Part shown: in pieces, positions 327 to 18,351 of the stretch
How positions within the stretch are numbered: the first letter of the stretch is position 1
Layout: the number at the start of each line of letters is the position of its first letter
Source of the DNA: Candidatus Saccharibacteria bacterium UBA1050
GTDB lineage: Bacteria > Patescibacteriota > Saccharimonadia > Saccharimonadales > Saccharimonadaceae
Direction of reading: 5' to 3'
DNA: 64,000 nucleotides
Assembly (NCBI GenBank): GCA_002316545.1
Contig: DCDR01000002.1
Span: 18,248-82,247 of the forward strand
Notes under the pieces: model-generated
Databases searched by the model: none
What the model saw: the letters and a program-made list of their open reading frames with translations, nothing else
Told to the model about the DNA's origin: nothing
Translations under genes and position numbers: made by a program

Positions 327-1847
327 CTAGAGTGATACGTCTTCGCCGTAGTGCTTCTTCAAGCGCATCTCAATCGAACCTTTGTGTCGCCCGAGCATTT
401 TTGAAATTTCGGATACATCTACGCCATTTTCAAATGCCTCTTTTAGCTGAGCATCTTGAGCCTTCGTCCATGGTCGATACGCATTCGGGTACGTCTCACG
501 CATTTTTTCAATCTTTTCGCTCCAATTTGATGATTTCGCCGCTGGCTTCACTGGCATGGCAGCTCGCTTTGAAGCGTTCTTTTCTAGGTGAGCCAATTCC
601 TTCGCATCCTGAGCAGATTTCGATCGCAGTAAGCTGTCTATCGTATGTGCGTCTTCACTAATTTGTAGCGCCATACGGTTAATGCCCTTTAGGTACAGGC
701 TGTCGAGGTTTCGAACGCGACTCAGTGCTACATAGCCCATTCCTTCTACGAAAGCTTTTCGCAGGTCAATCAAAGCCGCGTCGAGCGTCATTCCTTGGCT
801 TTTATGCACCGTTATCGCCCACGCCAAACGCAACGGTATTTGCGTTATACTAGCGCGCTTTTTATCACCATCACGAAGCTCCCACGTATCTGGTTGCATG
901 GTCACTTCCCTGCCATTGGTAAATTCAACAATTGGGTATTCGGTGGCTGGGTCAAAATCTACCACGGTGCCAATACTCCCATTGGCATACTTTTTGTTCA
1001 TGTCATTTTTTACCGCCATCACCAATGCACCTTGCTTTAGCCGTAAGGTGGCCGGTGCTAAGACTGATCGCTGTAAATTCTCGACGTAATTTGTACCGCC
1101 CGTGGTGGTCTGCGTATATATCATTTCATCGCCGGCTAGCTCGTCTAGTTTGGCTTCGTTTTGTTTATCGACATCCACGTTCACCGTGTGCAGTTCGGTA
1201 TAGAGCAAACCGCTTGGAGGAGTGATTTCCGCCCGAGCTAGCAATGTTTCGGCATGATGCCGCCGCACATCTTGCTCGCGCATCGCCTGCAAAATATTAC
1301 TTAATTTTTCGTCGTCGTGACGGAACTGCTCGTTTAGGTAACACACGACTGGGTTGAGTTCTTGCCACGCAACACTATTTACCACAAAACTGCCTGGCCT
1401 TGCATCGTTTCTGTTCACTGGCGGCAATTGGAAAAAGTCGCCACTCATTATCAGCTGAATTCCGCCGAATGGTTTGTCGGGTTGCTTGCGAATCAACCGG
1501 CAGGCTTCGTCTACCATATCAAGTCGAAAGTCGTGCAGCATCGATACCTCATCGATAATCAACACGTCGGTTTTTTCAATAATTTCGCGCCGCCCCTTGC
1601 TGACATGCTCAGCAAAGTTCGGCGGCAATTCATCGTGCACGCCTATTCCGCTCCAGCTATGAATTGTTGTTCCACCCAGATGTGATGCCGCCAGGCCAGT
1701 GGTGGCCGTCACACTAACATGCTTACCTTCATGTTTGGCTAGTTTAATAAATTGGTTTAGTACGTAGGTTTTCCCCGCTCCTGCCGGACCAGTCAAAAAC
1801 ACGCTGTGACCAGCGAGCATTATTTCGAGCGCAAGTGTTTGATTCAT
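327..1847 (-). CDS. Pif1/RecD-like SF1B DNA helicase with a C-terminal HTH-like tail
   Basis: The ORF track gives 327..1850 (TTG); the adjacent ATG at 1847 is more likely. Motifs: GPAGAGKT (Walker A), TATTGLAA, LIIDEVSM, GDFFQLPPV, TVHKSQGMT, YVALSRV. The last ~90 aa end in RPWTKAQDAQLKEAFENGVDVSEISKMLGRHKGSIEMRLKK. Confidence 0.8.
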   Translation of the reverse strand: MNQTLALEIMLAGHSVFLTGPAGAGKTYVLNQFIKLAKHEGKHVSVTATTGLAASHLGGTTIHSWSGIGVHDELPPNFAEHVSKGRREIIEKTDVLIIDEVSMLHDFRLDMVDEACRLIRKQPDKPFGGIQLIMSGDFFQLPPVNRNDARPGSFVVNSVAWQELNPVVCYLNEQFRHDDEKLSNILQAMREQDVRRHHAETLLARAEITPPSGLLYTELHTVNVDVDKQNEAKLDELAGDEMIYTQTTTGGTNYVENLQRSVLAPATLRLKQGALVMAVKNDMNKKYANGSIGTVVDFDPATEYPIVEFTNGREVTMQPDTWELRDGDKKRASITQIPLRLAWAITVHKSQGMTLDAALIDLRKAFVEGMGYVALSRVRNLDSLYLKGINRMALQISEDAHTIDSLLRSKSAQDAKELAHLEKNASKRAAMPVKPAAKSSNWSEKIEKMRETYPNAYRPWTKAQDAQLKEAFENGVDVSEISKMLGRHKGSIEMRLKKHYGEDVSL

Positions 1848-1865
1848 CAATTTAATTATAGACTA

Positions 1866-2840
1866 CTAGCCACGAGGCGGCTCGCCCTCTGGCTCACCAA
1901 GAAGCTTCTTGCTCTTAATCTCATAGCGTTTACCTGTTAGCTCGCTCGTAATGTAATCTTCGTTAATCAAATTTACAAACATATCGAGGTCACGACCATC
2001 CATTATGATGATTTGGTCTTTTTCGTCGCTCATGAGTTCCAACTCCATCGTATCAGCATATTCTATCGCCTGCTCTTGGGTAACTGCGCCGACTTCAAGT
2101 TTCTGCAACTTGTTTACAATCTTACGGCGCTCTCGCACCAAGCTTTGCAAATCAAGCCCTTCAGGAAAACTCAGTTTGTAGGCTTTTTCAATTTCCGCTA
2201 CCTTCTCGTCTGCCAGTAACTGCTTTTTAAATTCGTACTGGAATAGTTTTTCAAACTTGCCATGGTTGAAAATAAATATATCATCACCCACTATCATCAC
2301 TTGGTTATCGTTTGGCATTTTTACGCCAACGTCGGCCTTAAACGGCGCCAACGTACCGCCTGTTAACTCCCAACTCACTGCGCCTGCTAGCACATTGCTT
2401 TGCTGCACTGCCTTCACTATGTAGAACGCGTCACTGCCGTCGCTTTTCGTACAACGCAGGGCCACGCCCTTTATGCGTTTGAACTCGTGATCGCCTTCAG
2501 AAAACGGTTCAATGCTGCCCCGCTCGTGTTCAAGTAAATTGATCAGCGTTTTTGCGCGCTCAACTTTCTCTAATTCTGTTCGTAGCAAAACATTATCTTC
2601 CGCCTCTGATAATTCGTAGTCACGAACGCTTAAGCCAGTCCCTGCTCCAAAGTTTATAGTGTTTATTACATCGTAAATAAACATTGCACGCAGCTGGTGT
2701 TCGAGTTCTTTTGAAAACTTCATCGAATATGGCGTGTAGTTCTTGTTGAACACAAATAGTTCAAGTTCGAGCTCATTTTTTATGCCGTCATTTTGGTTTG
2801 CCCACAAGAAAATATCAGTTGGTGTTTGCGTATCAGTCAT
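1866..2840 (-). CDS. Hypothetical protein, tentatively DUF4868/KwaB-like
   Basis: 324-aa ORF with ATG at 2840 preceded by GGGAG; 18-nt gap to the helicase gene and 20-nt gap from the MMPL gene. No catalytic motif. Its length and pattern (LELFVFNKNYTPY.., FYIVKAV.., IFIFNHGKFEKLFQYEF) resemble DUF4868 as I remember it. The CDS is solid; the family call is unverified. Confidence 0.45.
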   Translation of the reverse strand: MTDTQTPTDIFLWANQNDGIKNELELELFVFNKNYTPYSMKFSKELEHQLRAMFIYDVINTINFGAGTGLSVRDYELSEAEDNVLLRTELEKVERAKTLINLLEHERGSIEPFSEGDHEFKRIKGVALRCTKSDGSDAFYIVKAVQQSNVLAGAVSWELTGGTLAPFKADVGVKMPNDNQVMIVGDDIFIFNHGKFEKLFQYEFKKQLLADEKVAEIEKAYKLSFPEGLDLQSLVRERRKIVNKLQKLEVGAVTQEQAIEYADTMELELMSDEKDQIIIMDGRDLDMFVNLINEDYITSELTGKRYEIKSKKLLGEPEGEPPRG

Positions 2841-2860: not shown

Positions 2861-5104
2861 TTATTTCTTGGTTTTCAATTTCGACGGCCACCAGACAAAT
2901 GGACCAATGTCGCGAATGAGTGCTGGAACGAGCAACGTACGTACGACGAACGTGTCGAGCAACACACCGAATGCTACAATGAAGGCGATTTGGAATAAGA
3001 ATAAGATTGGTATCACACCCAATGCGGCAAACGTAGCCGCAAGCACAATACCTGCACTCGTAATCACACTACCCGTAACCACCAAACCTTTTATTACTCC
3101 CTTTGCCGTGCCATGCTTTACTGTCTCTTCTCTCACACGAGTCATTAGGAAAATATTGTAATCTATCCCAAGCGCTACCAAGAACACAAAGCCAAACAAC
3201 ACTACCGATGGGTCAGCACCCGGGAAGTTCATTACTCCGTTGAATAGCAACGCAGCTACGCCAAGTGTTGCAGCAAAAGACAGCACCGTACTTGCAAGTA
3301 GTAGCAGAGGCGCGACTACGGCGCGTAGCAACACCATTAAGATGATGGTTATCGCGATAAGCACCGTAGGGATGATTATTTCCCTATCTCGCTTAGAAGC
3401 GGTAATCGTATCTTGCTGAATAGCTGTTGGACCACCCACTAATACATCACGAGAAACATCGTCAAGCTTGTCTCGGAGTCGAACTACGGTGTCTTTTGAA
3501 TACTGACTATCTGGCTCCTTCAAAAGTGTTGCTTGCAGTAAAATTTGTCCGTCTTCCGATCTTGCCTGTGATGCGCCAAATGGATTCGCGTTATCGACAG
3601 CCGAGTCGATTATCAATTCATAATTTGGCGTCTGTTTTGGAATATTTGCCTGAGCTTCAACTTTTGCCCGAAATTCTTTCATAAATTCATCGGCTGCTTT
3701 TCCGACCGGCATCGTACCGCTAGGGCTGTTGATCGCTACTGCAGCAACGCCATCAATTCCTTTGTCGGCATCGACTAGCTTCACTACATCTTCCCAATTG
3801 TCATCCTGCGCCACAATCTGCACTGGACTACCTGAACCACCCGGGAAATGATCATTCAAAATTTCTTGCCCATCACGCGCATCAGATTGTCCGAGTATTA
3901 AATCACTTTGCTCCACGCCATCCGCTTTTAATTGCGTCGAGAACATGGCAAGTACAAGCAACGCAGCAGCGCTAGCGATCCACGCTGCACGGCCGTGCGT
4001 TTGCACTAAATCACCTACTTTGTGCCATACGCCTTTGGCGAGTCGTTCTTTGTGCTTCTTTACCTGCTTTGGGTCGGTGCTTGGCATAAATGGCCAAAAA
4101 CTTCCTCTACCAAACACATACAACACTGCTGGCAAAAATGTTAGCGCAGATATCATTGCGAATGCCACACCAATAGAGCCTACCGGTGCAAGTGCTTTGT
4201 TCGATTCCAGGTCAGATAGCAAGAGGCACATCAAGCCCACGATTACCGTTCCCCCGCTAGCAATAATTGGTTCAAACGCACCCTTGTAAGATTCCGCAAT
4301 TGCGTGAAGCTTGCTGGCATTTTCGTATAATGATTCCCTAAAGCGCGACACGAAAAGTAGCGAATAGTCAGTTGCCGCACCGATTACTAATATAAAGAGT
4401 ATGCCCTGTACCTGGCCGTTCAACGACACAATGTCGTTTTTAGCTAGCCACCACACCAACATAATACTGGCGCTTAGTGCAAAAATGCTGGTTAATAGCA
4501 CGACAATTGGCAGTAGAACCGAGCGATATACCACAATTAGAATCACAAACACAACAGCAAGCGCAGTAAGCAGTAGTATTCCGTCGATTCCAGCAAATGC
4601 CTTGTTCAAACCGGCAGCAAACGCAGCCGGGCCAGTAACATGAAAGCTTGCACCATCTATGTCAACTTCGCTATATATTCTTTCGATGTTTGACGTCACA
4701 AGTTCAAGCTCGGAGCCTGAGTCGACAGGTACTGCGACTAGCACCGCCTTGCCATCCTCAGAAAGTATTGCTGGACTTGGATCCTCGCTTATGCCTTCCG
4801 CACATTCAAGTTCTTCTGCGGTTTTATCAATTGTACTTACATCTGCTTTGCTAAACTTTTTATCGCTATGAAACAAAACAATCGCAGGTAATGTAGTGTC
4901 ATCCTGAAACTTTTCGAGCTGCTTATTTACTTTTGTTGATTCTGCACTCTTTGGCAAAAAGCCAGCAAAACCATTATCGGCAACTTCCTCGATCTTACCA
5001 AAGTATGGGCCGCCGACGGCCGACACGCCAAACCAAACAACTATCAACGCTGTCGGTATCACTATTCGCAGCCATTTCGGTGCGCCCTCAAACTTTCCTA
5101 ACAC
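2861..5104 (-). CDS. MMPL/RND-superfamily membrane transporter
   Basis: 747 aa. GTG start at 5104 with GGAGG 8 nt upstream. There are two repeats of a large soluble loop followed by a cluster of about 5-6 hydrophobic helices, which is typical MMPL topology. Confidence 0.7.
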   Translation of the reverse strand: MLGKFEGAPKWLRIVIPTALIVVWFGVSAVGGPYFGKIEEVADNGFAGFLPKSAESTKVNKQLEKFQDDTTLPAIVLFHSDKKFSKADVSTIDKTAEELECAEGISEDPSPAILSEDGKAVLVAVPVDSGSELELVTSNIERIYSEVDIDGASFHVTGPAAFAAGLNKAFAGIDGILLLTALAVVFVILIVVYRSVLLPIVVLLTSIFALSASIMLVWWLAKNDIVSLNGQVQGILFILVIGAATDYSLLFVSRFRESLYENASKLHAIAESYKGAFEPIIASGGTVIVGLMCLLLSDLESNKALAPVGSIGVAFAMISALTFLPAVLYVFGRGSFWPFMPSTDPKQVKKHKERLAKGVWHKVGDLVQTHGRAAWIASAAALLVLAMFSTQLKADGVEQSDLILGQSDARDGQEILNDHFPGGSGSPVQIVAQDDNWEDVVKLVDADKGIDGVAAVAINSPSGTMPVGKAADEFMKEFRAKVEAQANIPKQTPNYELIIDSAVDNANPFGASQARSEDGQILLQATLLKEPDSQYSKDTVVRLRDKLDDVSRDVLVGGPTAIQQDTITASKRDREIIIPTVLIAITIILMVLLRAVVAPLLLLASTVLSFAATLGVAALLFNGVMNFPGADPSVVLFGFVFLVALGIDYNIFLMTRVREETVKHGTAKGVIKGLVVTGSVITSAGIVLAATFAALGVIPILFLFQIAFIVAFGVLLDTFVVRTLLVPALIRDIGPFVWWPSKLKTKK

Positions 5105-5612: not shown

Positions 5613-6233
5613 CTATGCCTCCTTCGCGTTTGTTTGCTTATCATACCAGTAGCTATATACCACAGCCGCTACCAAGCTAATTCCGTACAGCCACCACACC
5701 ACCTGAAACCAACCTACCGTCAGTTCCCTGCCCAATATCAGCGCGTGCGTAAATATTGCTGCCATCGCTACGAGCTGAATTTTATCTACAATGTGCCACC
5801 AGCTTCGAGTGCCGTACCATCGGCGCAGCTCAAAGGCCAAAAAAGCAAAGAGCGATAGCGTTCCAAGTAGCAAAATTGCTTCCTTGCCTGGGTATGCAGC
5901 CGAATAGCTAGCTGGTGGTAGCCCCAGGCCATCTTGTATCAAGCCGTAATTCAGCAGCAATGGGTGTGCTACTATCAATACCAACACGGCACCAGTGGAA
6001 ACGCTCCAATACATGTCGTTGCTCTGTTTCTTTATTCCCCACATTCGTCGCAGTGCGCCACCAATGTAGTGCGTCCACATCAGTCCAAATGCAATCAGGC
6101 CTAGAGGTGGAAATACATCATATATACTCAAGTTACCATCACCTCGTACGTCAAACCATACAAAAAAGCTTAGCGCTGTCACCAGCAAAGCAAGCATCCA
6201 TTCTACCAGCTGAAATTGTTGCTGTTTCGTCAT
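5613..6233 (-). CDS. Polytopic membrane protein, possibly ferric-reductase/YedZ-like heme-b protein
   Basis: 206 aa with about 6 hydrophobic helices and membrane-embedded His residues (WTHYIGG, IVAHPLL, IFTHALILG). Its stop is 1 nt from the cupredoxin gene start. Confidence 0.4.
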   Translation of the reverse strand: MTKQQQFQLVEWMLALLVTALSFFVWFDVRGDGNLSIYDVFPPLGLIAFGLMWTHYIGGALRRMWGIKKQSNDMYWSVSTGAVLVLIVAHPLLLNYGLIQDGLGLPPASYSAAYPGKEAILLLGTLSLFAFLAFELRRWYGTRSWWHIVDKIQLVAMAAIFTHALILGRELTVGWFQVVWWLYGISLVAAVVYSYWYDKQTNAKEA

Positions 6234-6271
6234 TTGTTCCCCCGTTTACTACATCTAGTATAGCATCTGGG

Positions 6272-6892
6272 CTAGTTGCTACGGCGACTTTCGAGCACCG
6301 GTGTACCCTCATATGAAACATTGCCTTCATCGTCGATGACGGCAACACCTGCGTTTTCAAAGTGAAATACGTCTATCGCCTCACGCATGGGTACGCCCGA
6401 TGCAGCCGCGCAAAGCGCCAGGCCGGCATCACCGTGTGTTACTATCAAGCCTCTTTGGCCTAGCTTTAGTTTGCGACGAATTATCTTCAAGGCTCTACCG
6501 GTTCGTCCCACGGTCGCGTCGAATGACTCCGCGCCATACTTACCTTCCACGTAGCGCGTGCCGTTTTTTGCATGAATTATGTCTTCTTTGCCTACAATCT
6601 TTAGTGCATCGATTTGTTCGACAGACATATTTTCCAGTATCCCAAGATGGCGTTCGTGTAGTCCTGTCATAATTTCAGGTGTTACCCCATGTAGCCTCCC
6701 TGCTATCTCGGCAGTTTGGCGTGCTCGCCACATAAAGCTCGTCCAGATCCGATGTACTTCTTCTAAATTAGAAGCCTTGTCAAAAACTTCCTGCTGACCG
6801 TCCTCATTAAGCCCTGGGCAAGGCGCCTGATTCAATACCTTCATTTTGTTGCCATCGGTCTGGCCGTGCCGCATTACGATTATTTCAGCCAT
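6272..6892 (-). CDS. Histidine phosphatase (phosphoglycerate-mutase-like) family protein
   Basis: N-terminal IIVMRHGQTDGN (RHG motif) and C-terminal LIVTHGDAG. Confidence 0.75.
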   Translation of the reverse strand: MAEIIVMRHGQTDGNKMKVLNQAPCPGLNEDGQQEVFDKASNLEEVHRIWTSFMWRARQTAEIAGRLHGVTPEIMTGLHERHLGILENMSVEQIDALKIVGKEDIIHAKNGTRYVEGKYGAESFDATVGRTGRALKIIRRKLKLGQRGLIVTHGDAGLALCAAASGVPMREAIDVFHFENAGVAVIDDEGNVSYEGTPVLESRRSN

Positions 6893-6896
6893 ACGC

Positions 6897-7376
6897 CTAC
6901 TGTATTCCCAATTGTCTTAGTTGCTCCGAGAAAAGTCCAATATCATGTTCAAGATTCTGTTTGTAGGCTATTTCTATTGATTCTATTTTGTCTTCCGAGT
7001 CATTTTCGATGTTCGTGAGAATTCCTAAGACAGACGGAATGTCAGCAGCCTGCGCGCCCTCAAGCTCTTTTTGCAACAGCACGCGCATCACTTCACGTAG
7101 TTTTGTTATATCGTCAGACCATAGTTTTGCTACCATGCCGTCATCAAAACTAAAGTCGTGGTTTCTCATTACCTCTACAAGTGTCGAAAATTGAAAAGCC
7201 AAATTGTCCACCACCGTAAGCACTTCACTATCGTTTATTGGTCTCGATTTCTGAACTTTTACAGTATCAAACAGTAAAAAACCCAAGTCACGGCACAACT
7301 TATCATGCGCCTCCATGGTATCTAAAAGCATGCTCTCGACTCCCACCAAAAGCTCTTCACCGGTTTCTTTTGCCAT
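6897..7376 (-). CDS. Hypothetical helical protein
   Basis: 159-aa ORF with clean codon structure and tight spacing to its neighbours. No recognisable motif. Confidence 0.6.
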   Translation of the reverse strand: MAKETGEELLVGVESMLLDTMEAHDKLCRDLGFLLFDTVKVQKSRPINDSEVLTVVDNLAFQFSTLVEVMRNHDFSFDDGMVAKLWSDDITKLREVMRVLLQKELEGAQAADIPSVLGILTNIENDSEDKIESIEIAYKQNLEHDIGLFSEQLRQLGIQ

Positions 7377-7417
7377 TATTTAGCAATTCTACCACATATT
7401 TGTCAAAGATATGATAC

Positions 7418-7750
7418 CTAAGGCTTCGGCGGCAATGTCAGTGTATAGTCACGACTTATCTCTAGCAGTCGCTTCAAGTTATCTTCATCAAGCACGTCTG
7501 CCTCAGCTTGCAACCAACTTTTCATACTTTTCCCACCATAGGTGAAGTAGCCAATACCTGGCTCTTGCAGCAATTCTTCTACGGTTGGCTCAGCTGCTTT
7601 TACTATCAATTCGTCTGTTTTGATGCCAAATGCCATATTGCGATTGATAAAATAGCCTAGCCCGCCAAACATTTTGCGTTTTGACACGTCCAAGCCCCAA
7701 CTGGCGACCACTTCGTCGATTCGTTCTTCTAGTATTGTATCGTAGGCCAT
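7418..7750 (-). CDS. TfoX N-terminal domain protein
   Basis: 110 aa; KRKMFGGLGYFINRNMAFGI is typical of the TfoX/Sxy N-terminal domain. Confidence 0.65.
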   Translation of the reverse strand: MAYDTILEERIDEVVASWGLDVSKRKMFGGLGYFINRNMAFGIKTDELIVKAAEPTVEELLQEPGIGYFTYGGKSMKSWLQAEADVLDEDNLKRLLEISRDYTLTLPPKP

Positions 7751-8385
7751 TACTGCTTCTTGTAAAGTCTCCAGCTACCGCCAGATATTACTTCTACACT
7801 GCCGTCTACTACCTTCAGCGCGCTTAAATCATCAAGTGCGTACACATCGTTCGGCCTGTTTTTAGCGTACTCCTCTGTAGCATTCAGCCCTGCTTCATCG
7901 CAGTGCACATTTATTTCAAAGTCTACGTAGCCCAAGCCAGACAAATCAGTCAAACCCATAGAATTATCGTCTATGGGTAGTGCAATCTCTATGCTTGGCG
8001 TCATAACCATCGTACTCGCGCTGCCACCTACAAATACTTTGCTTTCAATATTTTCTTTCAGCCATTCATCAAACCCCGTTTTTCGTACCTGATCCAACAA
8101 GTGAAACGTATTACCTCCGCTCACCCACAGCACGTCTACATCAGCCAATCGGCCGCGCCAATCTACACCGTCAGCGCTAATATCTACTATGTCTATATCG
8201 TAAAAGCCGTAGCGTTGCAGTTGCTGAAACTGAGCAATCAGCCATGTTTTGTTGTATGGCTCTACATTTGCGGCTGTTGGCACAAAACCAACCTTGCAGT
8301 CGCTGGCTGGCTTGCCGACCATTTGTTGCAAGGCCTCACCAATTGCTCGCTTTGAAAGTCCGCTCGATGTCAGTAGTAATTTCAT
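7750..8385 (-). CDS. Peptidase E-like (S51) / type 1 glutamine-amidotransferase-like protein
   Basis: MKLLLTSSGLS.. N-terminus and VSGGNTFHLL motif; 211 aa. Confidence 0.65.
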   Translation of the reverse strand: MKLLLTSSGLSKRAIGEALQQMVGKPASDCKVGFVPTAANVEPYNKTWLIAQFQQLQRYGFYDIDIVDISADGVDWRGRLADVDVLWVSGGNTFHLLDQVRKTGFDEWLKENIESKVFVGGSASTMVMTPSIEIALPIDDNSMGLTDLSGLGYVDFEINVHCDEAGLNATEEYAKNRPNDVYALDDLSALKVVDGSVEVISGGSWRLYKKQ

Positions 8386-8410
8386 GCTATTAGTATAGCG
8401 CAGTAACTCT

Positions 8411-8451
8411 TTTCATTAAAATAACACCCGGCGTATTTACCGGGTGTTATT
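8411..8451 (-). terminator. Rho-independent terminator after the 57-aa ORF
   Basis: Perfect 12-bp inverted repeat AATAACACCCGG (8420-8431) / CCGGGTGTTATT (8440-8451) with an 8-nt loop, followed on the minus strand by TTTAATGAAAAG. Confidence 0.7.
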
Positions 8452-8454
8452 TCG

Positions 8455-8628
8455 CTAGAACACTTGGGCGAGTATCCAGACGGCTGCGGCTGTTTCGATA
8501 AAAAACAGTCCCAATCCTACTGGTGAGCCCCAGCTGAACCAGCTGCCCCAGGCACGCCAGTTCTTATGAGTAAGTTCATACCATTCCTTACCCATCAGTT
8601 CTTGCTCTTCTTTTGTCGATTTAGACAT
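8455..8628 (-). CDS. Small Trp-rich membrane peptide (57 aa)
   Basis: Below the ORF-track cutoff. ATG at 8628 is preceded by TAGGAG. Translation: MSKSTKEEQELMGKEWYELTHKNWRAWGSWFSWGSPVGLGLFFIETAAAVWILAQVF. Followed by a strong terminator. Confidence 0.5.
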   Translation of the reverse strand: MSKSTKEEQELMGKEWYELTHKNWRAWGSWFSWGSPVGLGLFFIETAAAVWILAQVF

Positions 8629-8772
8629 TGTAAGAACTCCTATTAATTGTTAATAAAAGTCCCCAATGTGTACGCAGTGCCGGTGGCGAGTTATTCCCTT
8701 GGGGCAGGCCTCGCTGTGGATGCGGACTTACGTGCTTATTTACAGTGTACTAAATTGTGTCAAACGAGACAA

Positions 8773-9291
8773 TCAAGTCTTGTTAGCTTTTCGGCGCATT
8801 ATCACACCCGAGCCGTTCAGCCTGCCCTCGTCGCTTGGGTATTGCCAGCCGTAAATTCGTGGTGGTGCAGTTTTGTCTATCTCAAAACCCAGGTGTTCAT
8901 ACATTTCTATGGCTTGTGTACGGTGGCGCATTACGTCTAGTTCAATCTCGCGACCAGCGGCAAATTCGAGCACTTTATTGAACAGTTCGCGGCCAATCCC
9001 CTTACCTTGTTTATCTATGGCTACATAAAAGCCTGAAAGATGCACTGGGTCGGTGTTGCTTGCGCCGATTCCGCCAAGCAAAGTTCCATCGTCATCCAGC
9101 GCCAGCCAAGTGGCGTTGTTTTCAAAGAAATTACGAAAGTACACAACGGTGCTTTCGTCTTCAAACTCTTCTTTTGAAAATAGTTCAGCGGGTATACCCA
9201 ACTCTGGCGCTGCGTACGCATTTTGATAAATCGGCTGGCAAAATTCAGCATATTTATCTGTCCAGCTTACATCGCCGCTAATAATTCGCAT
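8773..9291 (-). CDS. GNAT family N-acetyltransferase
   Basis: FYVAIDKQGKGIGRELFNKVLEFA (acetyl-CoA binding Q/R-x-x-G-x-G/A motif); 172 aa. Confidence 0.7.
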   Translation of the reverse strand: MRIISGDVSWTDKYAEFCQPIYQNAYAAPELGIPAELFSKEEFEDESTVVYFRNFFENNATWLALDDDGTLLGGIGASNTDPVHLSGFYVAIDKQGKGIGRELFNKVLEFAAGREIELDVMRHRTQAIEMYEHLGFEIDKTAPPRIYGWQYPSDEGRLNGSGVIMRRKANKT

Positions 9292-9294
9292 GTA

Positions 9295-10194
9295 CTACTT
9301 TTTCGTTAGTATGTTTTGCGGTTCACCAGCGAGGTATTTTTCAACGTTTTGCACCATAATCTCAAGGCCATTGGCTGCCGCTTGCTTGGTTACACCCGCT
9401 ACGTGTGGTGTTACCAGTATCTTTTCGCTTGAAAGACATTTTTTGTAAAAGTCGTTTGAAACATCAAATAGCGGTTCTGGGTCACAATCTATTGCTGCAC
9501 CACCCACTACACCTGCTTCGATTGCTGCAATTAAACCATCGATGTCGTACGTCCATGGGCGCGAGAATGTTACGTAAAAAGCGCCTTGTTTCATAGCCAT
9601 GAAAAATTCTGCATTGAGCAAGTTCTTTGTAGAGCTGTTGCAGTTCAGTGCATTCAGCACTACATCTGCGTGCTTTACAGATTCATGCAGGTCATCGCCA
9701 CGTTCAAAGTAGCTTACGTTCATACCGAAAGCTTCACATCGCTCACCTACTTCGGTTCCGATGGTTCCATGGCCAAGCACCACTACTTTTTTCCCTTCTA
9801 GGCTGTCTGTCGAAGTAAATGGATACTGCGTCGTGGTACGCAAAAACGTTGGAAATTGGCGAAAGAGCGAAAGCATGCCAAACATCGCCCACTCAGCTAT
9901 AGATTTGCGGTTGCCGCCCTTTGCGTTGGCTATAAATACGTTTTTCTTTGCTAGTTCATCTGCGTTGAATGCTCCGAGTTCTGTGTATGGGTAAGTTATT
10001 AGCGCATTTTCAAGCGCACCTGCTTTTTCCAGCACGTAATCGCCCCAGCTACACACCACGTCGTAGCCTTTTACTTTTTCCACCCAATCATCGGCCGATT
10101 CCGCGGCAATGGTTTCAACCTGCCCCGCAGCAGCTAGTCGAGCCTTTTGTTCGTCAGTAAAATTAAATTCACCTGCTAATGCAATTTTGCTCAT
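9295..10194 (-). CDS. D-isomer-specific 2-hydroxyacid dehydrogenase family protein
   Basis: NAD-binding VVVLGHGTIGTEVG and C-terminal ILVTPHVAG motifs; 299 aa. Confidence 0.75.
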   Translation of the reverse strand: MSKIALAGEFNFTDEQKARLAAAGQVETIAAESADDWVEKVKGYDVVCSWGDYVLEKAGALENALITYPYTELGAFNADELAKKNVFIANAKGGNRKSIAEWAMFGMLSLFRQFPTFLRTTTQYPFTSTDSLEGKKVVVLGHGTIGTEVGERCEAFGMNVSYFERGDDLHESVKHADVVLNALNCNSSTKNLLNAEFFMAMKQGAFYVTFSRPWTYDIDGLIAAIEAGVVGGAAIDCDPEPLFDVSNDFYKKCLSSEKILVTPHVAGVTKQAAANGLEIMVQNVEKYLAGEPQNILTKK

Positions 10195-10195
10195 A

Positions 10196-10579
10196 CTATT
10201 CTCCGTTCTTTGGTATTTCCATCAAATCAATATCAAATACTAAATTGCTATTTGCGGGGATGTTTTTCGCGGGGCTGCTAGAGCCGTAGGCCATTTCGGC
10301 TGGAATGATTAAGCGGCGCGTACCGCCTACTTTCATGCCAGGTACACCTTGTGTCCAACCAGCTATTACGCCGCTTAGAGGGAATGTGATCGCCTTGCCA
10401 AAATCGTGGCTACTTTGGAATATTATGCCATTTTTACATAAAGCCCCTGTGTAGTGCGCCGTGATTGTAGCCCCGGCACGCACCTCTTCACCCTTACCAA
10501 CATCCAGGTCGATAATTTCTAATCCTTTTACTTCCTCGCGCGGTTCAAAATCCGCTAGCTTTGTGCCTTCGTATACCAT
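10196..10579 (-). CDS. FKBP-type peptidyl-prolyl cis-trans isomerase
   Basis: TAHYTGAL..G.IFQSSHD..ITFPLSGVIAGWTQGVPGMKVGGTRRLIIPAEMAYG is the canonical FKBP core. Confidence 0.85.
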   Translation of the reverse strand: MVYEGTKLADFEPREEVKGLEIIDLDVGKGEEVRAGATITAHYTGALCKNGIIFQSSHDFGKAITFPLSGVIAGWTQGVPGMKVGGTRRLIIPAEMAYGSSSPAKNIPANSNLVFDIDLMEIPKNGE

Positions 10580-12301
10580 ATGTTTGAATTATATCTTAAA
10601 AAATATATCTTCTCTTACCCTATTCAATAACACACTGACCTTGCCTACAGCTTGAGAAGCAGATTTTTTATTTGGCGTAGATGATAGCTGTTTCATGATA
10701 AGTTCGAGTGCTTGAATATCAGTGTCAAACATACTATAGCTATATGCTCTAAAGACTTGATTATTTTCAATTAATGACTCTATAGCAGGCTTAATAATAT
10801 TATTATAGGCAAGCAAACGTTCTTGAGTTGCTCCCTCGAAACTAGAGACTGGAGTAGTACTACCTTCTGGTATGTAAACAAAGCTGAAGCCAAAGCCAGA
10901 ATACCAATCTTCAATCTCCCAAAATTCTGCTGGAAAAGCCTGCCTCATTCTATCCGGTAGCGCCCCAAACGCTCTCACAAAGACTGCTGGAGCTTCTTGG
11001 CTATCCCTGCTTTGATAGTCTTGATTAAGTATTTCTCTGCCTTGATCTATATAGCTATTTAATAAAGCCCTATACTCACGAGCTACGTAGCTCACTGTCC
11101 CGCTGAGAAATTGGTTACGATACACAGGGTCAACCACCATACTATCGAGCATGCCTTTAGAGCTTAGGTCGGTTTTCCAGTTTGATACAGCTTCCATTAC
11201 CATTCGCAACGAAATAGTCCATAAAAATACGTTCCTTATAAAATTCTCGTCATTCGCTTCGTTTTTGAACAAATCTACACCCGTTCTTTTAACTAAACTG
11301 TCTATCTTTTCTATAAGTACACTGATCTCGGGCGCAACAACAATTTCATTTGGTAGCGTTCTTAAAAGATATTTTTTCGGATTTGGCAAAACGCCAGCAA
11401 GTGATTGTTCAAGATCGCTTCGATTAGTTGTGACAATCATGATCACACTACCTCTTAGAAATGATAAAACTTCTATCACGCGCAGCCATTTGGTTGCTTC
11501 GATTGGATCAAGTCTGTCTAAGTCTTCTAAAATAACAACTATCTTTAGCTCTCTATTAGTAAATATGCCTTGGATTTTTTTTAGTAATCTAAATAGCTCA
11601 TCTTCGACGAACCACCTTTTTACAACACCAACTTTTACTGAGAACAGGCCGTTAAAACCGAATGTTTGATCGATATCAGGCGTTAAGTTAGGTGACAGTC
11701 GACGAAACTCGGATATACCTGTAATGTTAGATAGTTGTATAAAAAGTTCGTCTATACCCTCGCTTGGATTACCGAAGCCCCAAAGACTATGATAGTATGA
11801 CCTTTTTATAATCCCAGTATTTAGTAGCTTTTTAACAATGCCATCGGCAGTGACACTCTTGCCTGATCGCCAAGCACCATTAATAGTTATCAATGATTTG
11901 CTCGAGTCAGGCATTAAGCTAATTTGCTCAACTTCTGTGTTATCTATGCTTAACTTGATAACTTCTTGAGTGTTGGGTAAAGAATCTAGAATTATCTCCG
12001 ATTTGTTAGTAGTAGTTTTTTTAACTTTCTTTTTATCTAGCGCCCACGCTTTATTTGGCTGTACATATACAGGCATCTTTCGATACCTATAGTATTGTCG
12101 GTAGATAAGTACTACAGAAATTATTACTGAAACCACTAATAAAAAGCTTGCAAATGGTTTATCTAATACGCCGTATTTAAGCAAAATACACGACGCAGCA
12201 GGCACAATAAGTATGAAAAACGTATATTCGAAAAATAAGAGTGGGCTTGATGCAACATAGCCCCGAAATTTTCTGATGGCTTTTTTAAGTGCTTGGTTCA
12301 C
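10580..12301. other. AT-rich compositional island (single gene)
   Basis: Hand counts of 60-nt lines give 35% G+C at 10681, 27% at 11521 and 28% at 12121, versus about 52% at 12601 in glyQS. Confidence 0.7.
10589..12301 (-). CDS. KAP-family P-loop NTPase with two N-terminal TM helices
   Basis: 570 aa. Walker A is INGAWRSGKS (GxWGxGKS type) and Walker B is KIVVILEDLDRLDP (DDLDR type). N-terminal hydrophobic helices. The only in-frame start is GTG at 12301, which overlaps the glyQS 3' end by 17 nt. Confidence 0.7.
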   Translation of the reverse strand: MNQALKKAIRKFRGYVASSPLLFFEYTFFILIVPAASCILLKYGVLDKPFASFLLVVSVIISVVLIYRQYYRYRKMPVYVQPNKAWALDKKKVKKTTTNKSEIILDSLPNTQEVIKLSIDNTEVEQISLMPDSSKSLITINGAWRSGKSVTADGIVKKLLNTGIIKRSYYHSLWGFGNPSEGIDELFIQLSNITGISEFRRLSPNLTPDIDQTFGFNGLFSVKVGVVKRWFVEDELFRLLKKIQGIFTNRELKIVVILEDLDRLDPIEATKWLRVIEVLSFLRGSVIMIVTTNRSDLEQSLAGVLPNPKKYLLRTLPNEIVVAPEISVLIEKIDSLVKRTGVDLFKNEANDENFIRNVFLWTISLRMVMEAVSNWKTDLSSKGMLDSMVVDPVYRNQFLSGTVSYVAREYRALLNSYIDQGREILNQDYQSRDSQEAPAVFVRAFGALPDRMRQAFPAEFWEIEDWYSGFGFSFVYIPEGSTTPVSSFEGATQERLLAYNNIIKPAIESLIENNQVFRAYSYSMFDTDIQALELIMKQLSSTPNKKSASQAVGKVSVLLNRVREDIFFKI

Positions 12302-13682
12302 TGTCCAATGAACCTATCTCCACCCTTTTTTGTTCTGTCGTATCTCTGTCGCGAACTGTGACTGTATTGTTTTCTAGCGTTTTGAAGTCAATCACCACAC
12401 AGTGCGGCGTACCAATTTCATCTTGTCTGCGGTAGCGTTTACCGATGTTACCGTTGTCATCCCACATTACAGTACCATATTTTTTCTTTAGCATTTGGTA
12501 CACTTCGCGGGCTTTTTCTACTAGCTCTGGCTTGTTCTTTAGCAGCGGGCTCACGGCGTATTTCACTGGCGCCAGGTGCTCTGGTAGTGCGAGGTAAATT
12601 CGCTTTTCACCATTTTGCTCGTCTTCGCGGTAGGCACTAGTAAGTACGGCCATGAGTGCACGCTCAACACCAAAGCTTGGCTCAATCACGTGCGGCACGA
12701 ATGTCTCGTCGCTGCCCTTCACGTGGTATTCCATAGTTTTACCGCTAGCACGCTGAATATTAGCAAGGTCGAAATCGGTACGGTACGCTAGGCCCAGCAG
12801 CTCGTCTTTACCGTGCGGGAATGCAAATTCGTAATCTATCGTGCGCTTGCTGTAATGCGCGCGGTCGTTTTCAGGAACTTCAACTTCTTCTACACTTTCG
12901 CGTGGCAAGCCAAGCTTATCGAGGAATACTTCAATGTCTTTGCGCCATTGCTCGAAGGCTTCTTCCCACTTTTCTGGGTGCACGAAATATTCCACTTCCA
13001 TTTGCTCAAACTCTCGTGAACGGAATACGAAATCGCGTGGGCTGATTTCGTTGCGGAATGCCTTGCCCTGCTGCGCAATACCAAATGGTAGGTCGGGGTA
13101 AAAACTATCTACGACGTTTTTGTAATTCGTGAAAATACCTTGGGCAGTTTCTGGGCGAAGATATGATCGATCGTTCTTATCGAAAATTAACGCTGCAATA
13201 TTTGTCTCTTCAGCTTGTGGTTTTGTGTACGTTTCACCATTTTCTAGCTCAATACTGTTAAATCCACCGAAGCCCGCGGGACCAACGACTGTTTCAAACA
13301 TCATGTTGAACTGTACCGGGTCAGTAAAGCTACCCTCTTCACCACAGACAGGACATTTATTTGGATTCTCAAGTTTATCTGCACGGTGACGTGAATGGCA
13401 CTTCTTGCAGAATACCAATGGGTCGGTAAATGTATCTACGTGGCCGCTTGCCTGCCATACTTTTTGGTTCATCAAAATCGCCGCGTCGACACCGTACATG
13501 TCGTCGCGGTCTTCTACAAACATCTGCCACCAAAGGTTCATAATGTTGCGCTTCAGGGCTACACCAAGTGGGCCGTAATCCCATGTACCACTTAAACCAC
13601 CATATACTTCACTACCTTGGTAAATAAAGCCTCGGCGCTTCGCCAAACTCACAATATCTTCTAGTTTTACCTCTTTGTTCAT
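12285..13682 (-). CDS. glyQS: Glycine--tRNA ligase (dimeric glyQS type)
   Basis: The track ORF is trimmed from GTG 13691 to ATG 13682, because the GTG abuts the -10 box. The sequence RRGFIYQGSEVYGGLSGTWDYGPLG.. and its ~465-aa length are typical of class II GlyRS. Confidence 0.9.
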   Translation of the reverse strand: MNKEVKLEDIVSLAKRRGFIYQGSEVYGGLSGTWDYGPLGVALKRNIMNLWWQMFVEDRDDMYGVDAAILMNQKVWQASGHVDTFTDPLVFCKKCHSRHRADKLENPNKCPVCGEEGSFTDPVQFNMMFETVVGPAGFGGFNSIELENGETYTKPQAEETNIAALIFDKNDRSYLRPETAQGIFTNYKNVVDSFYPDLPFGIAQQGKAFRNEISPRDFVFRSREFEQMEVEYFVHPEKWEEAFEQWRKDIEVFLDKLGLPRESVEEVEVPENDRAHYSKRTIDYEFAFPHGKDELLGLAYRTDFDLANIQRASGKTMEYHVKGSDETFVPHVIEPSFGVERALMAVLTSAYREDEQNGEKRIYLALPEHLAPVKYAVSPLLKNKPELVEKAREVYQMLKKKYGTVMWDDNGNIGKRYRRQDEIGTPHCVVIDFKTLENNTVTVRDRDTTEQKRVEIGSLDSEPST

Positions 13683-13691
13683 ACTGTTCAC

Positions 13692-14888: not shown

Positions 14889-15812
14889 TTACAGAGAAAA
14901 GATTGTTTTTGTTTCGCGCGCCATGATACCAATATCGAAATATGGCGCAAGCAAACTCTCGCCTACTATCGTGCGATACTTTAGCAATTTGTCATCTTTA
15001 TTTACAAGTGCATCGGCCTTATCCTTTGCATCTTGATTGCCGTTTTTCAATGACTCGGCATACAGCATGAATGCCTTCTTGCTCGTACCGAGCATCTCTA
15101 AAGCATCCGCACGCTTTTTTGCATAATAAGGATGTTCGGGCATTGGTGATGCCTTCAAGATTTTTTCAAGTCCAGGAATAATTGTTTCCGTGGCTTGCTC
15201 ATACTCGCTTAGCTTATTCTGCTGCTTCACTGCTGGGTCCTCGCCAATTGAAGCCAAGCCATTGATAAGCTTGGTAAGCGCCTCTAGTGAAATAAAGGTT
15301 TGTGCTTTCGCCATATTTGCGAAGTAGGCTTCATGCTCGGTGGCCATAAATTTTTCGGCTAGTACTCCCCGTTCTAATGAAACAGTGCTGTCTTCAAGCT
15401 TCTTCTGTTTCTTCAACGCCGTATTGTACGTGGGGTTTAGATCTGCAAAAAATGAGTTCTTTGAAAGAGTCGGCTTCTTTTTGTCGAGTAGTGCGACGAA
15501 TTTTGTGTCACCTTCTGCAATACGGTTCATTTGTTCGCTATATTGTGCGAATAGCTTTTGGTGAGCTTTTACTTTATCAATAAAGGCAGGTTTTGATTTA
15601 TCATTTGCGATACGCACAAACTCTTTGTTTATCGTCTCAGTATCCTTCTGATACGACTTTGCGAGTACTGCATATGCGCCTTTTTTGTCTTCAATATAGG
15701 TCGAGAGCTCTTTATTGAAATGAGAAGCAAGTATTTGGGCGTATATAAACAGAATGGCAAGAAGCGCCAGCGCTATGCCAATGAATACGAGTAGTTTTTT
15801 TCGTGTAGTCAT
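14889..15812 (-). CDS. Membrane-anchored helical hypothetical protein
   Basis: The track ORF 14889..15881 is trimmed to ATG 15812 (MTTRKKLLVFIGIALALLAILFIYAQ), which removes the overlap with recO. It has an N-terminal TM helix followed by a long helical ectodomain. Confidence 0.6.
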   Translation of the reverse strand: MTTRKKLLVFIGIALALLAILFIYAQILASHFNKELSTYIEDKKGAYAVLAKSYQKDTETINKEFVRIANDKSKPAFIDKVKAHQKLFAQYSEQMNRIAEGDTKFVALLDKKKPTLSKNSFFADLNPTYNTALKKQKKLEDSTVSLERGVLAEKFMATEHEAYFANMAKAQTFISLEALTKLINGLASIGEDPAVKQQNKLSEYEQATETIIPGLEKILKASPMPEHPYYAKKRADALEMLGTSKKAFMLYAESLKNGNQDAKDKADALVNKDDKLLKYRTIVGESLLAPYFDIGIMARETKTIFSL

Positions 15813-15844
15813 GTATTTATGATACCGTTTATCGTTGTGCAGTG

Positions 15845-16522
15845 CTAATGCGCGACGCCTCGCTCGGCCAGCCATAGGCAATCGTCGATAAGTGTTTCGA
15901 TGTTGGCCACGTGCATGGCAACATTTGGTGGCTGGGCACTGAGTATGCGAAGCAGTTTAATATGGTCACTGGTGAACTGCCCTCGCTCGTGAAATACTAG
16001 CGCACCAGAGTTTGCGTCGAAGTTGTAACGCGCATCTTCAACCAACTTCATGCCACTGTCATCGGTAGCGAGATTCACTCCGACCCCTAGCAATATCGCG
16101 AGCTGTAGCCAAAACCATGTTTTGAGCACCGGTAGGAGTAATTCTGTGTCGTCGAGCGCAGCGAGTGCTTGGTCAAGAAGTTCAAAAAATGCTGGTTCGT
16201 CGAGCGCGTCGGCAGCTTTGCTCATTTGCTTTATTACTTCGTAACCAAATTGCAGCCGGTCGTAATCGCTTAAAATATTTCGGTAGAATTTTTCAAGCCT
16301 CGCACCAGTTAAAATACCTAACTCACCTTTTCCTGTAGAGATTGTGACGTCACAGCGAGCAAATAATTCTATGCCACCTGCCAGTTTACTTTTCTCACGA
16401 CGCACGCTTTTAGCCATAACGCTGATCTTGCCATGCTCGGGCGTAAGCATTTGAATAACCCTATCGGCCTCGCCATAGTTGGTACGGCGCAGCACAATTG
16501 CTTTGGTGCGAATTATCTTCAT
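15845..16522 (-). CDS. recO: DNA repair protein RecO
   Basis: MKIIRTKAIVLRRTNYGEADRVIQMLTPEHGKISVMAKSVRR is the typical RecO OB-fold N-terminus; 225 aa. Confidence 0.85.
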   Translation of the reverse strand: MKIIRTKAIVLRRTNYGEADRVIQMLTPEHGKISVMAKSVRREKSKLAGGIELFARCDVTISTGKGELGILTGARLEKFYRNILSDYDRLQFGYEVIKQMSKAADALDEPAFFELLDQALAALDDTELLLPVLKTWFWLQLAILLGVGVNLATDDSGMKLVEDARYNFDANSGALVFHERGQFTSDHIKLLRILSAQPPNVAMHVANIETLIDDCLWLAERGVAH

Positions 16523-17691: not shown

Positions 17692-18351
17692 CTATTGGTT
17701 AAAGCTAATTGTCTTGATGATCTTATCGAAGTCAGACTTGAAGGTATCTGCGTCGGTTTGAATAACTGCGGTTTTGTCACGAATTTTGAATAGCACAGCC
17801 GCGCCACGAATGTCGTCTGAAAAGTTGCCGTCGAGCCGCGTACCATTTTGACCATTGGCACTAAAAGAACGACTGCGCAAATCACCGTCTTCAACCAGAT
17901 TTGAATAATCGTCAACTACTTCGTTGTATTCTTTCTCGAGTATGCCTACCCGAAGGGCAAAACGCTGCTTAGGATTAACAGGTGGCACTGAGATTGGGTT
18001 TAGGTACGCTTCAAAGTCACCGCCATTGGTAATGTCACTCTCTACGTATACGCTCCACGTTTTCGGATAGCTAAAGCTTAGCTGGCCGTAATCGGCCGGA
18101 CCAGCGAACGTGCGGTTTGGTTCTTTCTCGCGTTCAGCGAATTTGGCTTCGTCTTTATCGGCCTGCACTTTTTCGGCTTCGGCTACTGCTGATGCGATTT
18201 TGGCATCGACGTTACTTTTTTGGTCGCGATAATTTACAAATGACCATACCGCAAGACCTGTCATGCCAATCATGCCAATAGTAAGAAGTACGATTGCTGT
18301 AATAATGCCGGCACTCATGCCGTGTTCGTGAGTTCGAGAAACTGGTATCAT
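17692..18351 (-). CDS. Membrane-anchored hypothetical protein
   Basis: The track ORF is trimmed to ATG 18351 (MIPVSRTHEHGMSAGIITAIVLLTIGMIGMTGL) to avoid overlap with the upstream methyltransferase. It has a single TM helix and an ectodomain. Confidence 0.6.
   Translation of the reverse strand: MIPVSRTHEHGMSAGIITAIVLLTIGMIGMTGLAVWSFVNYRDQKSNVDAKIASAVAEAEKVQADKDEAKFAEREKEPNRTFAGPADYGQLSFSYPKTWSVYVESDITNGGDFEAYLNPISVPPVNPKQRFALRVGILEKEYNEVVDDYSNLVEDGDLRSRSFSANGQNGTRLDGNFSDDIRGAAVLFKIRDKTAVIQTDADTFKSDFDKIIKTISFNQ

Follow-up and report, generated by a model that had tools for sequence, protein, structure and literature searches.

The KAP gene and its junctions

The window considered here, a 64-kb stretch (64,000 nucleotides, nt; positions 18,248 to 82,247 of contig DCDR01000002.1, assembly GCA_002316545.1) from Candidatus Saccharibacteria bacterium UBA1050, encodes on its minus strand a 570-residue P-loop NTPase of the KAP family, predicted to be tethered to the membrane by two N-terminal helices. 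Its gene, hereafter the KAP gene, lies between glyS and the gene of an FKBP-type isomerase. The composition of the gene, its KAP membership, architecture, rarity and patchy distribution, and the mobility of its family, are shown by the analysis itself. The gene and its immediate surroundings are arranged as follows:

10589..12301, minus strand: open reading frame (ORF) of the membrane-tethered KAP-family P-loop NTPase (ORF listing; PF07693 match; at least 14 public contigs encode the identical protein)
12285-13691: glyS, one-chain glycyl-tRNA synthetase gene, 5' neighbour of the KAP gene
10196-10579: FKBP-type isomerase gene, native, 3' neighbour of the KAP gene
12285..12301, minus strand: 17-nt overlap of the glyS 3' end with the KAP GTG, the glyS stop codon TAA lying at 12285-12287 (sequence read, start-codon scan)
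10580..10588, minus strand: 9-nt spacer from the KAP stop codon to the FKBP ATG (ORF listing, sequence read)

The ORF is intact (570 amino acids and a stop codon) and begins with GTG. A preliminary description of this DNA, made from the sequence alone, had reported the 17-nt overlap and the 9-nt spacer, both of which proved exact, and had called the GTG at 12301 the only in-frame start. Further in-frame GTG, TTG or ATG codons were in fact found at codons 33, 40, 56 and 76, all of them inside or past the transmembrane (TM) helices, but the GTG at 12301, the first start codon after an in-frame stop at 12316 in the start-codon scan, is the sole start that keeps the conserved architecture, and since homologues keep both TM helices the long form is the credible one. 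No convincing Shine-Dalgarno sequence was read at normal spacing from it, which makes translational coupling or read-through from glyS likely; judging from the sequence, the KAP gene is probably expressed through read-through or co-transcription from glyS. Scans for promoter-like and terminator-like sites around the gene returned background levels only. The same junction is present on every contig bearing the gene. In line with the earlier statement that no integrase, repeat or tRNA scar is visible, no integrase is encoded beside the gene, direct and inverted flanking repeats gave chance-level matches only in the window and in three relatives, no tRNA gene was found in the whole window, and no Rfam family matched near the gene.

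The AT-richness noticed earlier was confirmed, and the gene is the strongest compositional outlier of the window by sliding G+C content, by ORF G+C content and by tetranucleotide distance. Its G+C content is 37.5%, compared to 46.6% for the window and about 47% for glyS, so the contrast is real, although it had been overstated as 27-35% against 52%. In the sliding-window analysis the ORF had the lowest G+C content of all 1713-nt windows (z = -5.5), and the next-lowest one not overlapping it reached 43.3%. The ORF was likewise lowest among the 64 ORFs of at least 100 amino acids in the window, both in overall G+C (z = -4.9) and in G+C at third codon positions (GC3; 0.328 against a mean of 0.461, z = -3.45), while second positions (GC2) were nearly normal and only mildly low (z = -0.86). 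With GC3 lowest and GC2 near normal, the bias is largely synonymous and goes beyond what amino-acid content alone would give. The tetranucleotide distance from the window average peaked at 10601, about 5.7 standard deviations above the mean. Horizontal acquisition of the KAP gene is well supported, as the preliminary description had held; its further claim that the acquisition was recent is not supported, since the best glyS identity to relatives is 81% and all carrier contigs show the same junction, which leaves no basis for dating the event as recent.

Two other candidates at the locus were discarded. A two-gene system of the KAP and FKBP genes was ruled out, as the FKBP gene is native and trails unrelated genes elsewhere, with orthologues at 71-85% identity in other Saccharibacteria loci. 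A 172-amino-acid antisense ORF inside the KAP gene (11151-11669, plus strand) was treated as spurious, as homology support lies entirely on the minus-strand frame.

Domain architecture and family membership

The protein was divided into the following segments from hydropathy, an AlphaFold2 (AF2) model with its predicted local distance difference test (pLDDT) scores, and an alignment of the small family defined below (A1):

12245..12301, minus strand: residues 1-19, basic tail, predicted cytoplasmic, 5 K/R and 0 D/E (predicted helix 2-18)
12179..12241, minus strand: TM helix 1, residues 21-41, LLFFEYTFFILIVPAASCILL (hydropathy; AF2 helix 20-42; position conserved in A1)
12101..12154, minus strand: TM helix 2, residues 50-67, FASFLLVVSVIISVVLIY (hydropathy, AF2 model, A1)
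11903..12097, minus strand: residues 69-133, basic disordered linker (pLDDT <50 for 71-133; poorly conserved in A1)
11267..11902, minus strand: residues 134-345, KAP-type P-loop NTPase core (Pfam 133-305; AF2 pLDDT 70-92 except loop 209-231)
11855..11878, minus strand: Walker A GAWRSGKS, residues 142-149 (family consensus G-x-W-R-A-G-K-T)
11510..11539, minus strand: Walker B VVILEDLDRL, residues 255-264 (R263 family-invariant; first acidic residue E, compared to D in relatives)
10592..11266, minus strand: residues 346-570, mostly helical family-specific C-terminal domain with a low-confidence acidic insert at 428-495 (AF2, A1)

The two N-terminal hydrophobic helices, the Walker A and the Walker B described earlier are all present, and the helices do lie N-terminally: the hydropathy scan found no hydrophobic segment between Walker A and Walker B, with TM-grade segments solely at residues 21-41 and 50-67, and the AF2 model likewise places no such insert there. 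The loop joining the two helices (about 8 residues) is predicted to face outwards. With 5 K/R before TM helix 1 and 10 in the 32 residues past TM helix 2, the distribution of basic residues fits the positive-inside rule, which points to an N-in/C-in hairpin with a cytoplasmic NTPase. The AF2 model, built on the family alignment, had a mean pLDDT of 63 and shows a pair of long helices at the N-terminus, then a disordered linker, the P-loop core and, last, a mostly helical C-terminus. Strands at 286-292 and 319-321, past Walker B, belong to the core, so that residues 265-345 are part of the P-loop domain in the model and the region without an assignment comprises approximately 225 residues (346-570) rather than the motif-free stretch of some 270 residues previously placed directly after Walker B. 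This C-terminal domain had no match in Pfam, NCBIfam, PADLOC, PHROGs or PDB sequences, and no library matched past residue 315, but R366, S404, Y522 and L532 within it are conserved across the small family.

The KAP assignment, originally made from the motifs, held against the Pfam KAP_NTPase hidden Markov model (PF07693), which was matched at 32.7 bits (gathering score 20, E = 6e-8), with residues 133-305 aligned to profile positions 18-203 of 293. KAP proteins carry a Walker A of the G-x-W-G-x-G-K-S/T type, a pattern followed by GAWRSGKS with R replacing the second G, and the KAP Walker B pattern hhhhDD(L/I)DR is followed by VVILEDLDR (255-263) with E replacing the first D; the counterpart in relatives is IDDIDR. 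Many KAP members typically have TM helices inserted into the NTPase domain. These are lacking in the window protein, and such an insertion is reportedly the title feature of the KAP family paper by Aravind et al. in 2004. Published accounts of where the TM helices of KAP proteins lie differ (PMC13552941, PMC13001434), and as PifA has no TM helices at all, the missing insert does not exclude KAP membership. Apart from its divergence the gene encodes an ordinary member of the family, and the protein represents a divergent, Saccharibacteria-associated KAP branch with an N-terminal hairpin anchor.

NCBIfam had no match, PHROGs matched the Walker B region with a single family of unknown function, and searches of PDB sequences with the protein and with the family profile returned nothing meaningful. 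Among solved structures, Foldseek ranked RdrA best, followed by ORC/Cdc6, Vps4 and Apaf-like proteins, all weakly (E of about 1e-3), and the best match among predicted viral structures (BFVD) was a giant-virus protein annotated as a KAP-family P-loop protein (E = 1.6e-4). At these modest E-values the modelled domain appears to be an AAA+/STAND-like (additional-strand) P-loop fold with a helical extension.

The protein is rare. A word-indexed search recovered solely its own cluster, five members on at least 14 contigs (NCBI, ENA, JGI, Logan), including contigs from several independent samples with the same protein sequence, and repeating that search with the family alignment again gave nothing beyond this cluster. 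When 1.84 billion representative proteins were scanned exhaustively with HMMER, 28 matches were obtained at E <= 1e-3, 14 of them at E <= 1e-10; the better ones are 520-575 residues long and share the layout of two N-terminal TM helices, linker, KAP core and homologous C-terminus. The small family was defined as P0007, P0009-P0016 and the loci L083-L100, the related loci having been searched with an alignment (A2) that left the window protein out. To this family the window protein shows phmmer E-values of 1e-22 to 1e-12 at 28-36% local identity and 20-24% global identity, and in A1 the homology is collinear over TM hairpin, NTPase and C-terminal domain, with conserved residues extending to the C-terminus. 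Together with L091/P0006 the window protein forms a divergent branch, the members being 36-44% identical to each other; the closest relative is encoded on NCBI contig JAEHGI010000017.1 (identity 44% in the NTPase and 36% in the C-terminal half), and P0006, a C-terminal fragment and the closest relative in that part, is 36-38% identical to the window C-terminal domain. Of the 13 sequences in the family alignment, 12 matched PF07693 (best E = 2e-16), and only P0006 did not. The PADLOC PifA model, the best defence-model match for these proteins, was also matched by 12 of the 13 (best E = 3.8e-11), and a few members additionally matched the QatA or PDC-S20 models (E = 1e-5 to 4e-7).

Distribution, insertion site and mobility

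Comparison of glyS with 80 species representatives (64-81% identity) assigns the window to Saccharibacteria. In none of these 80 species did the sequence up to 6 kb from glyS contain a KAP homologue; the condition that the preliminary description had named as refuting acquisition, presence of the gene with native composition at this junction in all relatives, therefore did not hold. One member of the family carries the label Candidatus Saccharibacteria as an NCBI protein, and the flanking genes of three further family loci match Saccharibacteria loci at 45-80% amino-acid identity, so that the family appears from sequence to be Saccharibacteria-associated wherever the host could be judged.

For the survey of the insertion site, 56 Saccharibacteria loci had sufficient sequence to either side of glyS. 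Conserved synteny stops at the glyS stop codon: the three genes upstream are conserved (the nearest belongs to a single cluster in 27 of the 56), and none of the upstream genes lies 6 or more G+C points below its locus, whereas the genes directly 3' of glyS in the 56 genomes make up 44 clusters, and 23% of them have a G+C content at least 6 points lower than their locus. In two loci glyS and the FKBP gene are near each other with different contents between them, a 285-residue membrane protein in one (L006) and proteins of 77 and 201 residues in the other (L011). These varied contents and the hypervariable 3' slot together indicate that the KAP gene sits in a synteny break that has repeatedly taken up AT-rich accessory genes. 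The slot appears to be a gene-turnover hotspot across Saccharibacteria and should be useful for finding more such genes. Examples of AT-rich genes directly 3' of glyS encode proteins of 499 (L017; 39.7% G+C against 51.7%), 205 (L059; 29% against 43%) and 363 residues (L028; 40.6% against 53.1%).

Scarless single-gene copies of this kind could possibly arise by homologous recombination following DNA uptake. A gene with a TfoX_N domain, resembling a competence regulator, was observed at 7418-7750 (minus strand), 2.8 kb from the KAP gene (Pfam, identical locus L001), and may have a bearing on DNA uptake as a scarless route of gene gain.

Elsewhere, in genomes of 38-56% G+C, the family members have a lower G+C content than their flanks at nearly every locus:

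L085/L095: KAP gene 35.1% G+C, rest of locus 53.4%
L090: KAP gene 37.5% G+C, rest of locus 55.7%
L098: KAP gene 37.7% G+C, rest of locus 48.6%
L083: KAP gene 38.0% G+C, rest of locus 46.9%
L087: KAP gene 31.9% G+C, rest of locus 38.3%
L089: KAP gene 36.0% G+C, rest of locus 43.1%
L093: KAP gene 43.2% G+C, rest of locus 46.9%

In L091, the KAP gene (36-37% G+C) adjoins an RNase HI gene of 60%. No neighbours are shared among the family loci besides the KAP gene itself, which follows an Nramp gene directly in L090 (1-nt gap), lies between rpsG and fusA in L093 and is found just upstream of rplJ-rplL in L098. Two members are carried by evident elements: a roughly 7-kb AT-rich island (L083, 6714-13737) combines the KAP gene with a DUF1828/DUF1829 gene and a large serine recombinase abutting tRNA-Pro, and an element of 37-40% G+C (L099, 475-7609) combines it with a large serine recombinase and a REP_ORF2-G2P rolling-circle Rep gene. 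The distance between recombinase and KAP genes is 2.4 kb in L083 and 3.2 kb in L099, and the two elements have no detectable genes in common besides the KAP gene. No serine recombinase or defence island was found within about 8 kb up- or downstream of the window KAP gene, nor in the remaining family loci. The element-borne members and the recurrence of AT-rich KAP genes at unrelated positions indicate that the family is mobile, with AT-rich integrative elements as a plausible vehicle.

Some further genes at these loci deserve mention. In L093, five genes (6194-11473) split rpsG from fusA within the usually contiguous rpsL-rpsG-fusA-tuf cluster, namely the KAP member, genes for a diacylglycerol kinase-like protein and a PAP2 phosphatase, and two of unknown function. 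In L087, a 401-residue protein (10265-11470) with an IrrE/Peptidase_M78 domain, a type often met in regulators of prophages and mobile elements, is encoded two genes downstream of the KAP homologue. Within the window itself, a PIF1/RecD-like helicase gene (327-1850) comes after a KwaB-like gene (1866-2840, minus strand; Pfam KwaB 35.6 bits, PADLOC KwaB E = 2.7e-14), and the gene upstream of the KwaB-like one encodes an MMPL transporter (2861-5104) rather than an obvious KwaA; the region 327-2840 (minus strand) could represent a partial or variant Kiwa-like defence locus. A 330-residue ORF at 14889-15881 (minus strand) showed a weak match to PADLOC SoFic (E = 1.9e-5) and none to Pfam.

Proposed function and known systems

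The KAP protein is most likely a single-gene defence against phages or other invading DNA, a reading to which we assign a probability of about 0.5. It is suggested by the PifA- and QatA-type profile matches, by descriptions of PifA action against T7 at the membrane (PMC13001434) and by a 2026 study in PLoS Biology in which single-gene KAP NTPases with TM helices and an uncharacterised C-terminus, namely EF_KAP from Enterococcus faecalis and three KAP proteins from gut metagenomes, protected Enterococcus against phages (PMC13552941). Protection of the EF_KAP type required Walker B and the C-terminal region (PMC13552941). Under this reading, the hairpin would anchor the protein in the cytoplasmic membrane, and a flexible basic linker would join it to the NTPase, followed by the helical C-terminal domain. 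At the membrane's inner face the NTPase may then work as a nucleotide-dependent switch, probably as an oligomer, with the C-terminal domain recognising a component of the invader and the NTPase coupling this recognition to a membrane-proximal block of infection; alternatively, the C-terminal domain would itself act on the invader. Such a mechanism would be akin to that of F-plasmid PifA and of the single-gene KAP defence proteins of the 2026 study. The abortive-infection or defence switch envisaged in the preliminary description was itself a conjecture; the PifA match is weak, the neighbouring genes are housekeeping genes, and EF_KAP, the single look-alike studied by experiment, showed no abortive-infection phenotype (PMC13552941).

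Several observations weigh against a role in defence. The case for it, for the window protein as for its family, comes from comparison with other proteins. The PADLOC PifA match of the window protein itself is weak (E = 9e-5) and spans only 38 residues around Walker B (residues 239-276 on profile positions 169-206 of 720), a full-length match being absent. The neighbours of the KAP gene are housekeeping genes with no adjacent defence gene, the KwaB-like gene being about 7.7 kb away, and those relatives that adjoin core genes (rplJ, rpsG/fusA) occupy positions unusual for defence islands. No relatives of the family were found among IMG/VR viral contigs, PLSDB plasmids or GenBank phages. Finally, a separate AF2 model of the C-terminal domain had a pLDDT of 47.5, too low for a fold search, so no sensor or effector fold was identified.

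Among the alternatives, the gene could serve mobile elements, through exclusion, maintenance or addiction of AT-rich integrative plasmids or elements, with the window copy as stranded cargo left by recombination. We regard this as unlikely, even though two family members lie inside AT-rich elements with large serine recombinases, one with a rolling-circle Rep gene, the G+C content of the KAP genes matches that of those elements (37-40%), and PifA resides on a plasmid (PMC13552941); most loci, the window included, are without any element genes, and the window ORF has stayed intact with conserved motifs although no element remains for it to serve. Such a service also overlaps heavily with host defence, and the two are inseparable by sequence. 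Quite improbable in our view is a membrane NTPase for the epibiotic lifestyle or the envelope rather than for immunity, acting in the assembly or remodelling of complexes or in host attachment, uptake or signalling. The role first suggested for KAP NTPases was to regulate how membrane-associated signalling complexes assemble, according to the passages of PMC13552941 and PMC13001434 that cite Aravind et al. (2004), and the family has so far been seen solely in Saccharibacteria-like genomes with KAP genes embedded in housekeeping operons. Against this stand the extreme patchiness (28 matches in 1.84e9 representatives, and 0 of 80 species within 6 kb of glyS), the foreign composition everywhere, the lack of conserved partner genes and the two loci in recombinase-bearing AT-rich elements; as these are traits of accessory conflict genes, a core lifestyle function is disfavoured.

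The two remaining explanations concern the origin and state of the gene, and both were given less weight still. A native gene made AT-rich by constraints on amino acids or expression, rather than by transfer, might be argued from the AT-richness of nearly every family member whatever the G+C content of its host, which could be intrinsic to the family, and from the only mildly low GC2. The bias is nonetheless also synonymous, GC3 being the lowest of the 64 ORFs, the gene is absent at the glyS locus in 80 relatives, family members occupy unrelated and in some cases element-borne positions, and the L093 member deviates by just 3.7 points, which indicates that the family needs no extreme AT content; together these make a native origin hard to credit. 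Least plausible, and very improbable, is a decaying, non-functional remnant of foreign DNA. In favour of a remnant, the gene lacks its own promoter and ribosome-binding site and starts within the end of glyS, but chance survival of a 570-codon open frame at 37.5% G+C is very unlikely, the Walker A, Walker B and family-invariant residues are intact, and the same protein sequence occurs on contigs of several independent samples.

The defence reading may be extended, more speculatively and with low expectation, to the proposal that Saccharibacteria carry a lineage-specific, mobile, single-gene membrane immunity module that travels on AT-rich serine-recombinase or rolling-circle elements, has repeatedly been captured without scars behind essential, constitutive genes (glyS; rpsG/fusA, rplJ, Nramp) from which it borrows transcription, and has a new sensor or effector fold at its C-terminus. 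Saccharibacteria have tiny genomes and few recognised immune systems. More widely, phage resistance in bacteria of the candidate phyla radiation is little understood and experimental systems are just emerging; our literature search found no paper linking KAP proteins to Saccharibacteria. As a rare, mobile, single-gene membrane NTPase in a class validated only in 2026, the window KAP gene is a concrete and cheap candidate to test.

Known systems resemble the window protein to different degrees. The YobI-family defence protein is, like it, a membrane-anchored single-protein P-loop NTPase and illustrates action at the membrane (plasmolysis, ion export), but it belongs to another P-loop family, carries its TM helices inside the NTPase and gave no sequence or profile match. 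RdrA of RADAR (PDB 8fnt, 8hr7), a ring-forming defence ATPase with a P-loop core and a helical domain, was the best match among solved structures, although a weak one (E = 1.5e-3, template modelling score 0.28, 10-14% identity) indicating a shared fold class only; unlike the window protein it is soluble, about 800 residues long and has the deaminase RdrB as partner. QatA (of QatABCD) and PDC-S20 are KAP-type NTPases from defence contexts that were matched by a few family members but not by the window protein, and the partners of QatA, namely QatB, QatC and QatD, have no counterpart genes here. PifA of the F plasmid, which excludes phage T7, is a KAP-family P-loop NTPase like the window family, acts at the membrane and is carried on a mobile element, being the founding, plasmid-borne bacterial KAP protein (PMC13552941); it differs in having no TM helices and another C-terminal part, and on sequence the window protein does not appear to be a PifA orthologue.

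The comparison of the EF_KAP group with the window protein was one of architecture and published description. Their hosts differ (Bacillota for EF_KAP, Saccharibacteria here), as do the positions of the TM helices, EF_KAP having an N-terminal helix and another inside the KAP domain and the window protein two at the N-terminus and none inside. Small serine recombinases were used as markers in the EF_KAP study, whereas two relatives of the window gene are genetically linked to large ones. In both cases a single ORF of similar size encodes TM helices and a KAP NTPase in the first half, Walker B lies at approximately residue 250 (D246/D247 in EF_KAP, E259/D260 in the window protein), and the protein ends in a region of a few hundred residues without a known domain.

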